Assembly (NCBI GenBank): GCA_964477415.1
Contig: CAYZDT010000001.1
Coordinates: 1-26,198, forward strand
DNA: 26,198 nt
Source: an uncultured Candidatus Saccharibacteria bacterium
GTDB lineage: Bacteria; Patescibacteriota; Minisyncoccia; Phycocordibacterales; Phycocordibacteraceae
Direction: 5' to 3'
Below are positions 1 to 13,043 of this stretch, one piece after another; position 1 is the stretch's first letter; every line of letters begins with the position of its first letter. Both the position numbers and the translations under genes were made by a program. A model generated the notes under the pieces. That model was given only the letters and a program-made list of their open reading frames with translations. It ran no database searches and had not been told where the DNA came from.

Positions 1-2356
1 CGGCTTCACGGTCGTACAGCGACGGGTCGAACGAGTCGCCGCTGATGTTCGCCTCGACGTAAATATTCTTATACACAGGCTCAACCGAAGGAACGACCGA
101 GACGATATTTGAAGTCGATGCGGTCGGCGCAATCGCCATGCAGTTACTGTTTCTCATGCCGTACTTTTTGACCGCGTCTCTAACGGGAGTCCAATCCATG
201 GAAGTCGTCCGTGCGACGTCTATCTTTTCTCCGCGTTCTTCTTCAAGAAGCGCGATGGTATCCAAAGGAAGGAGTCCGCGGTCCCATTTCGAACCTTTGT
301 ACGATTCGTACGCGCCGCGCTCTTTCGCCAATTCCGCCGACGCGAGAATCGCGTAGTAGGAAATGACTTCCATCGATTCGTCGGCGAATTTCACGCACTC
401 TTCGGATGCGAAGTTGATGTTGAGCTGGTACAGCGCGTCCTGGAAACCGCCGGCGCCGAGGCCCACGGGACGATGGCGCATGTTAGAGTTTCTGCCTTCA
501 ATCGTCGGGTAGAAGTTCAGGTCGATCACGTTGTCGAGCATGCGCATGCCGACCGTGACCGTCTCTTTCACTTTCTCGCGGTCCCACTGGCCCGCAGTCA
601 CGTGAACCGCGAAGTTGACCCAGCCGAGGTTGCAGACCGCCGTTTCGTCTTTCGAGTTGTTCAGCGTAATTTCGGTGCAGAGGTTCGAGTTGTGGACGAC
701 ACCGACATGGTCCTGCGGAGAACGGACGTTCGAGGGATCTTTGAACGTAATCCACGGATGGCCTGTTTCGTACAGCATCGCAAGCATCTTCTTCCACAAA
801 TCCATCGCTTTTATGCGGCGGAACATTTTTATCTTGCCTTCGTCCGCGGCCTTTTCGTATGCAGCGTACGCCTCTTCGAACTTCTTGCCGTAAATGTGGT
901 GCAAGTCCGGAGTCTCGTCCGGCGAGAACAGCGTCCACTGGCCGTCCTCCCTCACCCGCTTCATAAAGAGGTCCGGAATCCAGTTGGCGGTGTTCATGTC
1001 GTGGGTGCGGCGGCGCTCGTCTCCCGTGTTTTTACGCAGTTCAAGGAAGTCCTCGACGTCGTAGTGCCACGTTTCAAGGTAGACGGCGGTAGCCCCGCGG
1101 CGGCGACCGGAACGGTTGATGGCGACCGTAACGTCGTTTGCGATTTTCAGGAACGGAATCACGCCCTGGCTTGTTATGCCCGCCTTTTTGATAACCGCGC
1201 CCGTACCGCGGATATTGGTCCAATCGGTGCCGATGCCGCCGGCCCACTTGGACATCTGGGCGTTGTCGCCGTAGACCTTGAAGATGTTGTCCAGATCGTC
1301 GTCGACGGTATTGAGGTAACAGGAAGAAAGCTGCGCGCGCACTAGGCCCGAGTGGAACAACGTAGGCGTCGAAGGCACGAAGCGCAAAGTCGAGAGCATT
1401 TCATAGAAACGAATCGCCCACGCTTCGCGGTTTTCTTTTTCCTGAAGCGCAAGCCCCATCGCGACGCGCATATAAAGGAGCTGCGGCGTTTCCAAAGGTT
1501 TCTTTTCCTTTCCGCTTCTGTCCTGAATGAAGTAGCGGTCCGACAAGGTCGCGACGCCCATGTATTTCAACAATCGATCGCGCTCCGGACGCAGCGCGGA
1601 CGCGAGTTTCTGCAAATCAAAATTAATCATGCGCTCGTCCAAGACTTTCAAAGCAACCGCGCGCTTCACGTTCTCGACGAAGCCCGCACGGTACGCGGCG
1701 TCGAAATCGGCTGACACAATCGTGAGTCCGTCTTTGTTGAACGCGCGCGCATACAGAGAATTCAACAGAAGCTGCGCCGCAAGCTGGTTGTATGCGGGAT
1801 CGCGTTCAATCATCGAACGCACCACCATGATGAGCGTGCGCTCGATTTCGCCAGTCGTGATGCCGTCATACACTTCGCGCTCCACTTGGCGCACAATGCC
1901 GTCGATATCGATTGCGTTTTTGTATTCCGGAAGTATCGAATACTCAAGAGTCTTTCTCAGTTTTTCCGTCGAAAATATTTCCCGCTCGCCGTTCGCGCGC
2001 ATAATAAGGAGCGAACGGTCTTCAATCTTCTTTACTACCTCCTCCTGCTTCTCTTCGCGTATCTTCGCGTGTTCGTAGCGGTAAATAATGTACGACTTCG
2101 CGACGTCATAGAAGCCGCGCTGCATCAGAGAGTGTTCAACCAAGTCCTGCACCTCTTCAACCGAGGGAATCGCCGCCGTTCCGCCGTACTTCAGGCTGAT
2201 TGCGCCGATGACCGCCGCTCCGATTTCTTTCGATTCCTCCTCCTTGGCGTCATTCAGAACGTCAAGAAACGCTTTGGACACTGCCGAGGTTATTTTTGCC
2301 TCGTTGAAATCAACGATAGTGCCGTTTCGTTTCTTGATTTTCTGAAGTGTCGTCAT
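1..2356 (-). CDS. nrdA: Ribonucleoside-diphosphate reductase class Ia alpha subunit, two N-terminal ATP-cones; 3' end truncated by window edge
   Basis: Manual translation from ATG at 2356, open to the window edge: MTTLQKIKKRNGTIVDFNEAKITSAVSKAF (ATP-cone 1), IMRANGEREIFSTEKL (cone 2), PSTPTLFHSG, QLSSCYL, GRRRGATAVYLETWH, HNSNLCTEITL (N-x-C-x-E catalytic motif), TAVCNLG, MAIAPTAS. Not in the ORF track because it has no stop in the window. Confidence 0.96.
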   Translation of the reverse strand, partial: MTTLQKIKKRNGTIVDFNEAKITSAVSKAFLDVLNDAKEEESKEIGAAVIGAISLKYGGTAAIPSVEEVQDLVEHSLMQRGFYDVAKSYIIYRYEHAKIREEKQEEVVKKIEDRSLLIMRANGEREIFSTEKLRKTLEYSILPEYKNAIDIDGIVRQVEREVYDGITTGEIERTLIMVVRSMIERDPAYNQLAAQLLLNSLYARAFNKDGLTIVSADFDAAYRAGFVENVKRAVALKVLDERMINFDLQKLASALRPERDRLLKYMGVATLSDRYFIQDRSGKEKKPLETPQLLYMRVAMGLALQEKENREAWAIRFYEMLSTLRFVPSTPTLFHSGLVRAQLSSCYLNTVDDDLDNIFKVYGDNAQMSKWAGGIGTDWTNIRGTGAVIKKAGITSQGVIPFLKIANDVTVAINRSGRRRGATAVYLETWHYDVEDFLELRKNTGDERRRTHDMNTANWIPDLFMKRVREDGQWTLFSPDETPDLHHIYGKKFEEAYAAYEKAADEGKIKMFRRIKAMDLWKKMLAMLYETGHPWITFKDPSNVRSPQDHVGVVHNSNLCTEITLNNSKDETAVCNLGWVNFAVHVTAGQWDREKVKETVTVGMRMLDNVIDLNFYPTIEGRNSNMRHRPVGLGAGGFQDALYQLNINFASEECVKFADESMEVISYYAILASAELAKERGAYESYKGSKWDRGLLPLDTIALLEEERGEKIDVARTTSMDWTPVRDAVKKYGMRNSNCMAIAPTASTSNIVSVVPSVEPVYKNIYVEANISGDSFDPSLYDREA

Positions 2357-10768: not shown

Positions 10769-11188
10769 CTATTCGACGGGGACGGCTGTGCAGCCGAGAT
10801 AAGATTTTTCTTCGTTATTCTCTAGAACGAGTGCTTCGTCCCCCTTCGACCAGAATACGAACGTTTCGCCACCTTCAATCAGTGGGTCGCCGTCGGAGTA
10901 TCTGACTCCGCTTGCCGAAAGAGTCTGCTTCAACGTCATTGCGCGTCCGTCTGAGAGAACAAGATCGACCGTACTCTGCGGGACGGGCGGTTCGCCTTCT
11001 GCGGCAGGAGGCAGGGGCTCGGCGTTATGAAATACGGCCGCTATTGATTTGCCGTCATTGCAGGCATATTCGACGGAAACTGTATTTGCTTCTTTAACGG
11101 GGGCTTCAGCGAACTGATGGCCGGACAATAGCCAAACCGCCGCAAGGATAACAGCAAGGACGGCTATGCCCACGAGAGTGTTCTTCAT
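10769..11188 (-). CDS. MliC/PliC-family lysozyme inhibitor domain protein
   Basis: Signal/TM helix; VEYACNDGKSI, TLKQTLSASGVRYSDG, FVFWSKGDEALV, terminal Cys (canonical MliC motifs). Confidence 0.85.
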   Translation of the reverse strand: MKNTLVGIAVLAVILAAVWLLSGHQFAEAPVKEANTVSVEYACNDGKSIAAVFHNAEPLPPAAEGEPPVPQSTVDLVLSDGRAMTLKQTLSASGVRYSDGDPLIEGGETFVFWSKGDEALVLENNEEKSYLGCTAVPVE

Positions 11189-11235
11189 ATGCGTACATTA
11201 TACCGATTCGCTTCGCGGAAAGGCGCGAGATTTTA

Positions 11236-11244
11236 TGGTAGTGT
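11236..11244 (+). promoter_or_regulatory. Extended -10 promoter candidate for the tRNA locus
   Basis: TGG-TAGTGT ends 9 nt before the tRNA-like 5' fragment at 11254. Confidence 0.45.
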
Positions 11245-11253
11245 GACCTCGAT

Positions 11254-11273
11254 TGGGAGGTCGCCTAATGGTA
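11254..11273 (+). pseudogene. 5' fragment of a tRNA-Gln-like sequence (acceptor 5' strand + D-arm)
   Basis: TGGGAGGTCGCCTAATGGTA versus TGGGGGGTCGTCTAATGGTA of the intact tRNA: 18/20 identical. Confidence 0.75.
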
Positions 11274-11343
11274 AGCAGAGCTTCCCGATTGCGCTCGCTC
11301 GGAAAAGCGAGAGCTGTTCTTTAATAAAATTCGTTCGCAGAGC

Positions 11344-11414
11344 TGGGGGGTCGTCTAATGGTAGGACATCAGGTTTTGGTCCTGAGTATCGGGGTTCGAG
11401 TCCCTGCCCCCCAG
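11344..11414 (+). tRNA. tRNA-Gln (anticodon TTG), CCA not encoded
   Basis: Acceptor TGGGGGG/CCCCCCA, D-arm GTC-TAATGGTAG-GAC, anticodon arm TCAGG-TT[TTG]GT-CCTGA, T-arm CGGGG-TTCGAGT-CCCTG, discriminator G. Confidence 0.95.
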
Positions 11415-11458
11415 CTCTGCGCGGGAAACAGCTTTCACTCTTCTCTCGCTCGCTTATC

Positions 11459-11513
11459 GGTAGGACATCAGGATATGGCGCTGAGTATCTAGGTTCGAGT
11501 CCCTGCCCCCCAG
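11459..11513 (+). pseudogene. 3' fragment (D-loop to discriminator) of a degenerate tRNA-Gln copy
   Basis: 49/55 nt identical to 11360-11414; differences are confined to the anticodon loop/stem (ATATGGCG vs TTTTGGTC) and the T-stem (TA vs GG). Confidence 0.85.
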
Positions 11514-11558
11514 CCCAGCACATTTCCCTCGTTTGAAATTTGGTACATTGAGGAGAAC

Positions 11559-13043
11559 ATGAAAACAATCGCCCTGCCATTACTTATCGTATTTATTGCT
11601 CTTTTTGTATTCGTGCCCCATCAGGCAATTGCGGCGACCGCCTCAATTGAATCGCTCTCGCCCGGTGCTGTCGTTCCGGCAAAACAACTGGTAACGTTCA
11701 AGCTTTCGCTGTCGGGTTTCTACGCTCCGTATTTTCAAATCAGCGATTCGTTCCCCAACTCGAGCGTCGGTTCTTCAAATATCAGCACGGGCGGCCAATT
11801 CTCATGGGCGCCGACGGCAAAAGACGCGGGCCAGCACGTCTTAACGATTACCGCGCGCGATTTCGAAAATAACGTTGCTACCGTATCAGTCACGCTCACC
11901 ATAACCCCGCCGCCGTCGGCGACGCTCTCTGTATCCCCCTCTTCGGCCGCGATACCGGTCGGAACTCCGATCGCATTTGCGGCGGGCACCGCGGGTTTTA
12001 CGAACCCAATATACAGCTGGAGCGACTCATTCAGCGGTTCGTCATTGTCGAACGCCTCGGGCGTTTCAGGGCAATTTACATGGACTCCTGATTTATCGCA
12101 GGAGGGCGACCACACCGTCACGGTGTACGTTTCCGATTCTTCGGGCGCTTCCGCATCGGCATCCGTTCCGGTCCACATCGGTCCTCTTCCCTCTTTAAAA
12201 ATTGTGAACCTTCGCCCGGGCACGAACGTCTCTGTCGGCACCTCAACTACGTTTTCCGTCTTTCCTGTCGGATACACGCCCACGGTCTTCGGCGTCTATG
12301 ACAGCTTTAGCGGCAGCACCTCGCTCTCGCCGAACGCGGTTTCAAATAACGGCCTCTTTTCGTGGATTCCGCAGGGTCAGGATATCGGCGTGCACGTAAT
12401 AACGATTACCGGAAGCATCGGACCGTTCGGAAAAAGCGCTTCAACTACGCAGACTTTAATTGTCGGAGAGATGGGCAAGCCTGTATCGTCCGCCTCACAA
12501 ACCCCCTCGGTTACCGCAGCGCTCCAACCTTCTTCTTCTGTTTCGGCATACATTTTCACGTCCGCATTGAAAATTGGTTCTGAAGGCGCGGAAGTAACGC
12601 AACTGCAGAAATTACTGAGCTCGCTCGGATTCTTTAACGGAGAAGCGACGGGATATTTCGGTCCCGTTACCGCAGAGGCGGTGAGAAAATTCCAAGCCGC
12701 AAAAGGCATCGCGCAATTGGGTACGGTAGGTCCGCAGACGCGCGCCGCTTTAAACGGAACGCCATCCGCCTCGGCGCCGGCTGCTCCTTCAGTCCAGACT
12801 GCAATGCCCGCGACAAACGGCTACGTATTTAAAAACTTCATGGGATACGGCGAAGATCCGAACGACGGCCCCGACGTCATGGAGTTGCAGAAACGCCTAT
12901 CTTCGCTTGGATTCTTTACCGGAGAAGCCACGGGTTACTTCGGCGCCGCAACGGCGGCGGCGGTAAAAAAATTCCAAACCGCAAACGGTATTGAAGCGAC
13001 GGGATACGTAGGCTCTCTGACCCGCGCCGCACTCAATAAATAA
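11559..13043 (+). CDS. Secreted protein with three Ig-like repeats and two C-terminal peptidoglycan-binding (PGBD-like) domains
   Basis: Signal peptide; three ~80-aa repeats with DSF..S..GQFSW.P...D.G.H..T; two repeats L..G..G..V..LQ..LSSLGFF.GEATGYFG..T..AV.KFQ...GI...G.VG..TRAALN; GAGGAG before the ATG. Confidence 0.88.
   Translation: MKTIALPLLIVFIALFVFVPHQAIAATASIESLSPGAVVPAKQLVTFKLSLSGFYAPYFQISDSFPNSSVGSSNISTGGQFSWAPTAKDAGQHVLTITARDFENNVATVSVTLTITPPPSATLSVSPSSAAIPVGTPIAFAAGTAGFTNPIYSWSDSFSGSSLSNASGVSGQFTWTPDLSQEGDHTVTVYVSDSSGASASASVPVHIGPLPSLKIVNLRPGTNVSVGTSTTFSVFPVGYTPTVFGVYDSFSGSTSLSPNAVSNNGLFSWIPQGQDIGVHVITITGSIGPFGKSASTTQTLIVGEMGKPVSSASQTPSVTAALQPSSSVSAYIFTSALKIGSEGAEVTQLQKLLSSLGFFNGEATGYFGPVTAEAVRKFQAAKGIAQLGTVGPQTRAALNGTPSASAPAAPSVQTAMPATNGYVFKNFMGYGEDPNDGPDVMELQKRLSSLGFFTGEATGYFGAATAAAVKKFQTANGIEATGYVGSLTRAALNK

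Follow-up and report, generated by a model that had tools for sequence, protein, structure and literature searches.

How does an intact tRNA-Gln gene come to lie between two pieces of another tRNA-Gln? The question is raised by a locus in a stretch of 26,198 nucleotides of Patescibacteria DNA (hereafter the window), in which a 5' stub, spacer X, a leader, the intact tRNA-Gln, spacer Y, and a 3' stub follow one another on the forward (+) strand, to which all feature coordinates below refer. An earlier note on this DNA had read the locus as one tRNA split in its D loop by a tRNA-bearing hairpin, and had offered as explanations a tRNA-carrying miniature mobile element, a scar of serial integrations, or a processing scaffold. 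All sampled words of the locus were found in six runs, and three different studies provide contigs (7.4 kb, 23 kb, and 0.7 kb) that cross it with 0-3 mismatches. The agreement among independent assemblies (at least six runs, three studies) rules out an assembly artefact, a possibility that the note had wanted excluded. According to Pfam scans of the ORFs in the window, all recognizable genes across the 26 kb belong to housekeeping families, and the whole 26 kb has no integrase, just as the earlier note had stated for the vicinity of the locus, and no transposase. Rfam searches at permissive thresholds of the window locus and of allele D (described below) returned tRNA only, with no family for the pieces or the inserts. 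A promoter and terminator scan returned two weak hairpins and no promoter-like site, and the extended -10 previously placed upstream of the 5' piece was absent from it.

The only tRNA in the window is a tRNA-Gln(TTG) at 11344-11414/15 (59.2 bits), which both ARAGORN and Rfam found where the earlier reading had located it. This intact tRNA-Gln(UUG), taken as 11344-11414, does not encode CCA, and its T stem (CGGGG/CCCTG) defines what we call the W type. The sequences on either side of it pair with each other. Specifically, the leader CGCAGAGC (11336-11343) and the trailer GCTCTGCG (11414-11421, beginning at the discriminator G) are the two arms of a helix in the minimum-energy fold, and these 8 bp together with the 7 bp of the acceptor stem form a 15-nt inverted repeat with 100% complementarity (11336-11350/11407-11421). 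The chance of 8 extra pairs at exactly that place is ~1.5e-5, and the acceptor stems of other tRNAs in the fetched loci, outside this locus, are extended by no more than 2 bp. The minimum-energy fold of the locus gives the nested picture (z = -3.2). The whole insert had been described as self-complementary around the inner tRNA, and this stands for the 8-bp acceptor extension but not for the outer arms (AGCTGTT/AACAGCT, AGCGAG/CTCGCT, and TAAGC/GCTTA), which were rejected as real pairing because they are at chance level in shuffle tests (duplex energy against dinucleotide shuffles, p = 0.07; interaction gain, p = 0.08). Perfect leader/trailer helices of 8-15 bp vary between alleles in a compensated fashion. 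Three of the eight pairs shared by the W-type helix and its counterpart of a second, L type differ, and all three differences are compensated.

The 5' piece (11254-11273) is a copy of tRNA-Gln nt 1-20 with 18/20 matches, in agreement with the earlier note, and is the upstream member of a 20-nt direct-repeat pair whose starts lie 90 nt apart. It is of W type (G7), and in allele D and in species E it matches the tRNA at 20/20 positions. Folds and alignments place its acceptor strand GAGGTCGC in a hairpin with an upstream leader GTGACCTC (11243-11265), and the two substitutions of the window copy (nt 5 G>A and nt 11 T>C), as read from the sequence, both convert a G-U pair of this hairpin into a Watson-Crick pair. 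The surrounding block (11218-11276) is near-invariant in alignments across alleles and species E, whose MliC is 82% identical and which shares the junction of the 5' piece (GGTA followed by AGC); four contigs represent this species, each ending inside or before the tRNA, and the comparison with it is one of the 5' side. Spacer X (11274-11335) has its left part, up to CGGAAA (11305), in common with alleles B and G at ~77% identity. Between the window and species E, 54/66 positions of spacer X are identical (18% diverged), and the AT-rich stretch TTCTTTAATAAAATTCGTTCGCAGAGC directly before the tRNA, which may be the promoter of tRNA-Gln, is conserved.

The 3' piece (11459-11514) is a copy of tRNA-Gln nt 17-72 (plus 1), also where it had been reported, with a 50/56 match (E = 7e-15) and a start-to-start spacing of 99 nt from the tRNA. 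The 5' half of its T stem is of L type (CTAGG), and four clustered changes are found in its anticodon loop (ATATGGCG vs TTTTGGTC). Positions 11503-11506, the last part of this piece in the window, are converted to W type, and the unconverted form is found in the X9 contig (11503 C>T, 11504 T>A, 11506 C>T) and in L103. When joined, the 5' and 3' pieces form the full cloverleaf that had been described, with an ATG anticodon and mismatches in the acceptor, D, anticodon, and T stems. The GGTA said to be shared by the two pieces is indeed an exact overlap, accompanied by an imperfect one of 13 nt, but its boundary is less sharp than proposed because the 3' piece may reach further 5' (TCGCTTATCGGTA vs TCGTCTAATGGTA). 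Similarity comparisons show that spacer Y (11415-11458), 44 nt of unique sequence, is all that separates the two 56-nt repeats; it has no similarity to 11514-11557 and no second copy in the fetched loci. The sequence GCCCAGCACATTTCC (11513-11527) is an orphan trailer whose perfect partner, GGAAATGTGCTGGGC, lies before the tRNA in alleles B and G. In allele B the pairing of the two yields a 22-bp closing helix (fold z = -7.7).

Close relatives with nearly identical flanks carry at least six structural alleles of the locus. Allele A is that of the window and of L001, L006, and L007, and allele A' that of the X9 contig. Allele B (L002-L004) has the 5' stub and a single complete tRNA without the 3' stub, allele C (unitigs in X11 and X12) is without the 5' stub, allele G (L103) carries the 3' stub, and allele D (L093) has an extra structured insert of 187 nt, between whose bounds and the tRNA 3' end a 19-nt stretch is perfectly repeated. 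Three repeat pairs were thus observed, one of 56 nt (nt 17-72, 89%) around Y, one of 20 nt (nt 1-20) around X, and the perfect one of 19 nt around the D insert. A search for an empty site at the orthologous locus, as suggested in the earlier note, was successful: allele G minus 99 nt equals allele B with 0 mismatches over 243 nt, and the ambiguity of placement is limited to the 9-nt block CTGAGTATC (11382-11390, with a second copy at 11481-11489), to which the G/B crossover is confined. The same kind of empty/occupied relation holds for A versus D and for C versus D and E. Database searches via the MliC neighbour (GTDB representative genomes and JGI metagenomes) returned no close relatives, with identities of at most 61%, and L009, the sole syntenic locus among these, has a plain tRNA-Gln. 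Orthologues of a 494-aa neighbour (62-64% identity) were discarded as comparison loci for not being syntenic.

Alleles B and G also differ from the window in the parts that surround the tRNA. Their spacer X' differs from X at ~23% of positions while the flanks are otherwise identical, and their tRNA body lies between two 17-nt stretches that are exact reverse complements of each other, with GGAAA/TTTCC on the flanks. In allele G the trailer that pairs with the leader is displaced downstream by 99 nt, and the partner of A7, T66, sits in the 3' piece; with its halves matched across the insert, this allele looks like an insertion into an intact gene. The working tRNA of G is a hybrid that combines a 5' end of L type (A7) with a T arm and 3' end of W type, which results in an A7:C66 mismatch. 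Its 3' piece equals the functional tRNA of B, T stem intact, apart from the four changes in the anticodon loop, and this lack of decay elsewhere suggests that it belonged to a working gene until recently. The leader/trailer helix is broken in alleles G and D, both of which persist. Since the L-type T arm is the same as that of the genome's own tRNA-Gln(CUG) (X5 record 7, same depth), the L type looks native and the W type imported.

Our preferred reading, to which we give slightly better than even credence, is that recombination has left stacked scars at this locus, where a tRNA-Gln gene serves as a hot spot for insertions within a Patescibacteria population, and that it holds no functional nested tRNA. 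The repeats, the alleles, and the exact empty/occupied relation are direct observations, and the forms of alleles B, G, D, and C suggest that each stub is the mark of its own repeat-bounded insertion or deletion. Among the options put forward earlier, the scar of serial integrations fits best, with an empty allele for each piece, and the scaffold has just the 8-bp helix in its favour. The idea of one tRNA split in its D loop is disfavoured by allele B, by allele G, and by the 5' junction in the species with 82% identity in MliC. Because what follows the 3' piece bears no relation to Y, the DNA would have been inserted from outside rather than duplicated locally.

The order of events that we infer starts from a resident L-type tRNA-Gln as in allele B, whose leader would have paired with the trailer now orphaned at 11513-11527. 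A circular DNA with a partial tRNA-Gln (nt 17-72, W-type T arm, altered anticodon loop, and trailer plus Y) would have recombined with the resident gene inside the 9-nt block, and the product would be a hybrid working tRNA, followed by the insert and by the displaced 3' part of the resident, that is, the 3' piece as found in allele G. Deletions would then have trimmed the remaining cargo of the element to 44 nt. The 5' piece would stem from a separate event with the 20-nt repeat of the tRNA 5' end at its bounds, and this event may be older or have occurred repeatedly since the same junction is found in another species. A third event, at the tRNA 3' end, would account for the 187-nt insert and 19-nt repeat of allele D. 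Finally, allele A would derive from G by recombination between strains that swapped a patch (spacer X, leader, and tRNA nt 7) for the W type, and a few of the last bases in the 3' piece would likewise have been converted to W type. Integrase-type elements, rather than RecA, probably made these insertions, and the elements were presumably larger at that time. Many documented integrated elements have a partial tRNA copy at their border, which can represent the 5' end of the tRNA or its 3' end (PMC9897764, PMC3293823).

Several observations weaken the scar reading. No integrase or other element gene lies between or beside the repeats, in the 26 kb (Pfam), or, as regards a recombinase, in the gene lists of the allele contigs, and a prophage with a tyrosine integrase is absent from the 26 kb. 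The attachment site (attP) of an integrase-bearing version is predicted to be GGTAGGACATCAGGATATGGCGCTGAGTATCGGGG, and the predicted attachment sequences, the W-type tRNA, spacer X, and the D insert had 0 matches in IMG/VR (exact patterns) or in phage and plasmid collections (BLAST), which is weak negative evidence as these collections hold few Patescibacteria elements. The inserts are merely 44-187 nt long, so that three elements would each have been nearly wholly deleted and yet have kept both repeats. The crossover block is situated between the anticodon stem and the T stem, and to our knowledge the usual integrase sub-sites are the anticodon loop, the T loop, and the 3' end, none of which coincides with it. 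RecA-type recombination with selection for a working tRNA would produce the same outcome as an integrase. The breakpoints of the 5' and 3' pieces fall within 4 nt of each other, a coincidence that is expected for one event and that we estimate at ~1 in 10 for two. The perfect leader/trailer helices are left unaccounted for by the scar model. The searches also touched on the first option offered in the earlier note, a tRNA-carrying miniature mobile element. For spacers X and Y and the D insert, no second copy turned up in the window, in 112 fetched loci (of this genome, the 26-kb window only), or in viral contigs. A MITE-like transposon is not supported, as no inverted repeat is significant apart from the 15-bp helix, which takes 7 bp from the acceptor stem, the outer arms being at chance and further copies absent from the sequences searched.

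The rival that survives best is a single insertion, which we judge unlikely but retain because tRNA-dependent lysogeny yields exactly this architecture (PMC10865867). An element with its own tRNA-Gln would have entered the D loop of the resident gene through GGTA or the imperfect 13-nt core, whereby the resident was destroyed and the tRNA of the element became essential; the rest would have been deleted until X, the tRNA, and Y were left. It is described for mycobacteriophages, in which a phage tRNA makes up for the loss of the disrupted host tRNA of the same isotype (PMC10865867), and a complete same-isotype tRNA is present inside the insert between the two pieces here. The coincident breakpoints and the full-length cloverleaf formed by the pieces speak for one event, the leader/trailer pairing of the inner tRNA would be natural for one imported cassette, and selection for the imported tRNA would explain its sole survival of the deletion. 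The W type looks foreign beside the genome's own tRNA-Gln(CUG), and allele C, from a very close relative, may be an empty site and could represent the uninvaded gene expected under a single insertion. Alleles B, G, and C would have arisen later through recombination at the repeats, and the leader of B and G by a template switch (quasipalindrome) that copied the trailer. Template switching is expected to leave exact reverse-complement flanks with inverted short bounds, a signature to which the 17-nt exact reverse complements around the B and G tRNA correspond.

On the other hand, the ~23% difference between X' and X points to a long-separate L lineage and not to a recent derivative of the window form. 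The A7/T66 pair and the leader and trailer of G are matched halves parted by the 99-nt insert, and the changes in the 3' piece (n = 4) are clustered in the anticodon loop. Set against GGTA and the imperfect 13-nt overlap are the 5' junction found in the 82%-identity species and the 3' piece, which shows no decay and is missing in B. Moreover, the best pairing partner of the 3' piece is the A7 on the side of the L leader, whereas the 5' piece has G7, and the exact shared core is just 4 nt. The single insertion is also confronted with the lack of element genes and of matches in the viral and plasmid collections.

A history with no mobile element at all, in which a local tandem array of 2-3 tRNA-Gln genes was eroded by deletion, unequal crossing-over, and gene conversion, seems to us quite doubtful. 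A CGCT..CGGAAA motif and a small hairpin precede each unit, other Patescibacteria tRNA clusters are full of tRNA-like fragments, and reciprocal loss of duplicates would lead to one working copy per strain. The upstream region is weakly similar to spacer X (40/59 identical, p = 0.016 in the window), but this similarity is gone in species E (p = 0.6). One local tandem duplication, which the earlier note had regarded as fatal to its own reading, does not explain the flanks: a single 99-nt duplication was ruled out because no counterpart of Y follows the 3' piece, so that the duplication does not continue past the repeat copies, and the repeats differ by compensated stem changes. These W/L changes, in the T stem as well as in the acceptor, suggest diverged genes instead of fresh copies. 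Furthermore, allele G (L leader and L 5' half, W 3' half, Y, and L 3' half) does not result from simple deletion within a W-L tandem, whereas one crossover with a circular molecule, as in the stacked scars, does yield it.

Very improbable, in our view, is a functional RNA scaffold, that is, 260 nt transcribed as a unit whose nested fold controls the maturation or stability of the inner tRNA, or from whose outer halves a second RNA is made. The nested minimum-energy fold, the compensation of all W/L differences in the helix, and the absence of such helices from the other tRNAs examined are compatible with it, as is the presence of the flanks in metatranscriptome assemblies at a depth like that of neighbouring genes, in unstranded contigs that possibly derive from DNA. 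Leader pairing that lengthens the acceptor stem slows bacterial RNase P (PMC9433436). These points are countered by the chance level of the outer pairings and by the mutations of the outer tRNA halves, which differ per allele. Since B is without the 3' piece, C is without the 5' piece, and G and D break the helix, no part appears to be required, and perfect helices without G-U pairs better suit an origin at the DNA level. An artefact of assembly or strain mixing, suggested by the metagenome source and by several alleles occurring together in some samples, is next to impossible given the independent assembly of the same sequence in at least six runs and three studies, on contigs of up to 23 kb.

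If the reading as stacked scars is true, the locus is a well-resolved natural case of a tRNA gene gaining and losing partial copies, with six structural alleles in near-identical genomes that include an exact empty/occupied pair, in a phylum (Patescibacteria/CPR) about whose mobile elements and recombination little is known. It would also be a warning for annotation that tRNA stubs in such small genomes are not necessarily a sign of a nearby island. Comparable gene-less, repeat-bounded inserts, which count in favour of the scar reading, were found beside tRNA-Ser and tRNA-Pro genes at other Patescibacteria loci, and the D insert resembles those at tRNA-Ser in layout alone, with no sequence homology between them. 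These recurring small structured inserts hint at a very small class of mobile DNA or at an unrecognized mutational process seeded by tRNA stems, and together with the compensated helices they could outweigh the original finding. A broader proposal, which we put forward with much reservation as improbable, is that Patescibacteria hold a class of gene-less structured mini-inserts (~45-215 nt) that enter and leave tRNA genes via tRNA-segment repeats and are mobilized in trans by a recombinase encoded elsewhere, the palindrome-flanked tRNA-Gln cassette that replaces a disrupted gene being one of them. Its members would be the tRNA-Gln locus, the D insert (187 nt), and the mosaic inserts that follow tRNA-Ser in another five genomes.

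Five known systems invite comparison with this locus. Quasipalindrome template switching is a replication slippage that perfects imperfect inverted repeats. It would explain the perfect 15-bp and 22-bp helices, seeded by the acceptor stem, and the clustered, simultaneous "compensatory" changes in near-identical strains, but it leaves the tRNA fragments unexplained, and the arms are 70 nt apart here. The tRNA-Thr locus of Caldiarchaeum likewise has a 5' tRNA fragment upstream of a complete gene, and several structural versions of it coexist among near-identical genomes of a natural population in one environment, which the authors attributed to an integration event and later homologous recombination (Sugahara et al. 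2012, PMC3293823). It differs in being archaeal, with a 1.8 kb insert that encodes a recombinase and with tRNA introns. CIMEs and tandem accretion involve elements reduced to their attachment sites and stacked at one tRNA with att repeats between them (PMC5704250, PMC7563491). Stacking at one tRNA site without recombination genes of their own is a feature that our inserts share, whereas no neighbour supplying an integrase was seen here. As far as is known, CIMEs are kilobases long and lie beside a related element that supplies the integrase.

In the tRNA-dependent lysogeny of actinobacteriophages, a host tRNA is split by an insert with a complete tRNA of the same isotype that takes over its function (PMC10865867, Guerrero-Bustamante and Hatfull 2024), which is the nested arrangement of the earlier note as a known mechanism. 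There, a whole prophage with an integrase and a core of ~10 bp is involved, whereas here the insert amounts to a tRNA and ~110 nt with an exact core of 4 nt, and the allele series suggests unequal ages for the outer pieces. The att duplications of prophages, ICEs, and genomic islands, among which fragments of the tRNA 5' or 3' end are known (PMC3293823; PMC9897764, with a Gln-TTG case), differ in that here the inserts are gene-less and 44-187 nt long, three scars are nested on both sides of the tRNA, no integrase is within reach, and the crossover block is off the usual sub-sites. In these att duplications as at the present locus, the inserted DNA lies between direct copies of a tRNA segment, one copy forms part of a working and partly element-derived tRNA while the other is a displaced fragment, and the empty-site allele equals a precise deletion between the repeats. 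By this analogy, the locus is best seen as the pattern that integrating elements leave behind, here pruned to 44-187 nt.

The only tRNA in the 26 kb is a tRNA-Gln(UUG) at 11344-11414 (ARAGORN and Rfam), which lies within the 370 nt that separate a divergently transcribed MliC-like gene (10769-11188, minus strand) from the gene of a 494-aa peptidoglycan-binding protein (11559-13043, plus strand). Upstream lies a 5' piece (11254-11273) copying tRNA nucleotides 1-20 at 18 of 20 positions, and downstream a 3' piece (11459-11514) copying nucleotides 17-72 at 50 of 56 positions with a spacing of 99. A perfect 15-bp inverted repeat (11336-11350/11407-11421) closes the inner tRNA, 8 bp of it outside the acceptor stem. 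These repeats are as described in the earlier note, which also took the outer copy to be probably inactive and saw no integrase nearby. Both points hold: the cloverleaf folded from the joined outer pieces has an AUG anticodon and a mismatch in every stem, and no integrase or transposase occurs among the window's genes, the remainder of which serve housekeeping functions (aldolase, aminopeptidase, clamp loader, two aminoacyl-tRNA synthetases, Dus, DprA, and topoisomerase I). Only the inner tRNA is a functional gene; the outer pieces are relics. The extended -10 element proposed for the locus was not recovered, as a promoter scan of the locus found no sigma-70-like promoter. Two 115-codon ORFs cross the locus on opposite strands (11189-11536, plus; 11233-11580, minus) and are almost certainly spurious, though open to being miscalled as genes.

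The nested locus is real rather than an assembly artefact: all sampled words of it were present in six public sequencing runs, and contigs of 7.4, 23, and 0.7 kb from three unrelated studies (sludge, activated sludge, and soil) span it with 0-3 mismatches. The host was assigned to Patescibacteria through relatives of its MliC protein (Paceibacteria-like MAGs). MliC-like lysozyme-inhibitor genes such as that at 10769-11188 also adjoin a tRNA gene (tRNA-Gln, tRNA-Ser, or a tRNA-Pro/Gly cluster) in the fetched loci L009, L012, L013, L014, L019, L036, and L037, which would fit a gene travelling with tRNA-targeting islands.

Contigs encoding the neighboring proteins were used to collect the corresponding locus of close relatives, which takes several structural forms between almost identical flanks. 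Allele A (the window, L001, L006, and L007) comprises the 5' piece, spacer X, the intact tRNA-Gln, spacer Y, and the 3' piece; allele A', on a 1.3-kb contig of run X9, is similar, with a 3' piece ending in CCTAGTCCCCCAG. Allele B (L002-L004, and also runs X10 and X15) has the 5' piece of A, a shorter spacer (X'), and a single tRNA-Gln of a second version, the L type (A7-T66, T stem CTAGG/CCTAG), without Y or the 3' piece. Its leader GGAAATGTGCTGGGC is perfectly complementary to its trailer GCCCAGCACATTTCC, forming a closing helix of 22 bp. In allele C, from unitigs of two metatranscriptome runs, the leader is joined directly to TGGGGGGTCGTCTAATGGTAGGACATCAGG without 5' stub or spacer, and in run X11 its 5' variant was seen only in this joined form. 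Allele D (L093) resembles A with 187 nt added immediately 3' of the tRNA. Allele G (L103) carries the spacer and leader of B, a hybrid tRNA (5' end L-type, T arm and 3' end of the W type found in the window), and then, after the W trailer and Y, a 3' piece whose end is L-type. A second species, E (L094-L097; MliC 82% identical), shares the leader, the 5' piece (20/20), the GGTA/AGC junction, and the W-type leader and tRNA, with a spacer 82% identical to X, on contigs that end inside or ahead of the tRNA. The block 11218-11276 is nearly invariant, this species included; within it the upstream leader base-pairs with the 5' piece's acceptor strand (11243-11265), and the sole two changes that set the window's 5' piece apart from the tRNA each turn a G-U into a Watson-Crick pair of that hairpin.

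A 163/218-nt contig (F) from metatranscriptome runs X9 and X11 shares only window 11265-11302, that is, 38 nt with 3 mismatches including the junction of 5' piece and X. A different hairpin (CCTGCC GGTA GGCAGG) precedes this segment and unrelated sequence (TCATAAGAAAATC...) follows it. Contig F was not present in DNA runs X1, X5, and X6, so it probably derives from another organism, and it may represent either an orthologous module or the end of a longer related element.

The central test compared alleles G and B. Removing 99 nt from G yields B with 0 mismatches over 243 nt, and the removal can be placed only inside a 9-nt block, CTGAGTATC, with window copies at 11382-11390 and 11481-11489. 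G is therefore the occupied and B the empty state of one site, and one recombination event between tRNA and 3' piece relates the two. The insert in G comes between the L leader and the trailer complementary to it, and between A7 and T66, leaving an A:C mismatch in the working tRNA; this pattern is the footprint of insertion into an intact L-type gene through one crossover with a circular molecule. The incoming molecule would have carried tRNA nucleotides 17-72 (with a W-type T arm and altered anticodon loop), the W trailer, and Y. Such a crossover would account for the clustering of the four differences of the 3' piece in the anticodon loop, the part brought in, and for its identity to a functional tRNA elsewhere. 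A local duplication of the 99 nt was excluded, since Y has no similarity to the sequence 3' of the 3' piece. A 3578-nt contig (record 7 of run X5), ascribed to the same genome by equal depth, carries a tRNA-Gln(CUG) that matches window 11344-11369 and 11484-11502 and has no leader/trailer pairing. Because its T arm is L-type (CTAGG/CCTAG), it suggests that L is native and W imported. The window allele may represent G after exchange between strains of a short patch (X, leader, and nucleotide 7) for the W version, and on this reading a 4-nt stretch of its 3' piece was converted to W type as well, as the comparison of A with A' and G shows.

Most likely, the locus consists of nested scars that separate insertions, each bounded by repeats, left at a tRNA hot spot. 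The 3' piece is undecayed except for the loop cluster and hence belonged to a working gene until recently, whereas the 5' junction is common to the window and a species with a spacer diverged by 18%. Moreover, the 5' piece has the G7 of the W type but the 3' piece agrees with A7 of the L gene, and ~23% of positions distinguish X' (in B and G) from X, between flanks that are otherwise identical, so the L side is a long-separate lineage and no recent derivative of the window form. Together with the occurrence in B of the 5' piece without the 3' piece, these differences disfavor the headline reading of the earlier note, one tRNA-Gln split by another, although its observations were largely correct.

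It is unlikely that a single insertion produced the locus, with a phage-like element splitting the tRNA gene, bringing its own tRNA, and losing everything else by deletion. This would explain the coinciding breakpoints and the mutual pairing of the inner leader and trailer, and would accommodate allele C as an empty site. Some actinobacteriophages do integrate into a tRNA gene via a ~10-bp core, destroying it and providing a complete same-isotype tRNA in its place (PMC10865867), and deletion of all but the supplied tRNA would yield the exact layout of the window. A single insertion then requires the L leader to have been made secondarily. In B and G the tRNA body is flanked by two 17-nt stretches that are exact reverse complements of each other, with GGAAA/TTTCC as brackets. 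A quasipalindrome template switch would yield flanks of this kind. That the locus is a tandem array of purely local origin in decay is improbable, as this does not simply produce allele G and Y is unique. A functional RNA scaffold is very doubtful, since the flanks beyond the 15-bp helix, claimed to be self-complementary, pair at chance level (as shuffled flanks do, p = 0.07-0.08), and every outer part is absent or broken in some persisting allele.

The leader/trailer helix measures 8 bp in W (window 11336-11343/11414-11421) and 15 bp in L (allele B, L002:2735-2850, minus strand). Three of the eight shared pairs differ, all three compensated, and other tRNAs in the fetched loci outside the tRNA-Gln locus extend their acceptor stems by at most 2 bp. 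RNase P is slowed when leader pairing lengthens the acceptor stem (PMC9433436), and selection on the precursor RNA is therefore possible. Against such selection, the helices are perfect, lack G-U pairs, and are disrupted in G and D; we lean towards a DNA-level origin.

Within the nested insertions favored here, the inserted material amounts to merely 44, 70, and 187 nt, and phage, plasmid, and IMG/VR collections held nothing similar to the locus material. Either three elements were pruned nearly away under strong deletion pressure or the inserts were small from the outset. In L093:1947-2500 (minus strand), the 187-nt insert of allele D is bounded by the tRNA (2274-2345) on one side and by a perfect 19-nt copy of the tRNA 3' end (2087-2105) on the other. 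It contains several long AT-rich hairpins, folds far beyond shuffles (z = -7.2), and in its right part resembles tRNA-Gln nucleotides 22-73 with hairpins in the anticodon and T loops; no match was found in Rfam or among phages, plasmids, and viral contigs. A 41-aa gene is called inside it. Five other Patescibacteria contigs (L012:2451-2769, L013:2524-2770, L019:1324-1560, L037:1259-1511, and L036:2303-2563) carry a tRNA-Ser(GGA) whose 3' end recurs as a perfect 14-19-nt direct repeat 133-214 nt downstream. These inserts are mosaics of common, strongly folded modules, one of which, a terminator-like hairpin, stands after the repeat in L013 and immediately after the tRNA in L037. They share the layout of the allele D insert: a hairpin after the tRNA, a T-arm-complementary segment, more hairpins, and the repeat. 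At L014:600-1400 (and in L041), a tRNA-Pro/Pro/Gly cluster is ringed by tRNA-Pro-like debris, namely a 21-nt 5' stub broken just past the D loop (629-649), a truncated 5' half that its own acceptor strand closes (about 1196-1230), and a miniature tRNA-like structure made of acceptor and T arm (about 1323-1368). The tRNA-Ser and tRNA-Pro loci lend some weight to inserts that were small from the start. The feature is of a known kind, in a form that is unusually miniature, two-sided, and polymorphic.
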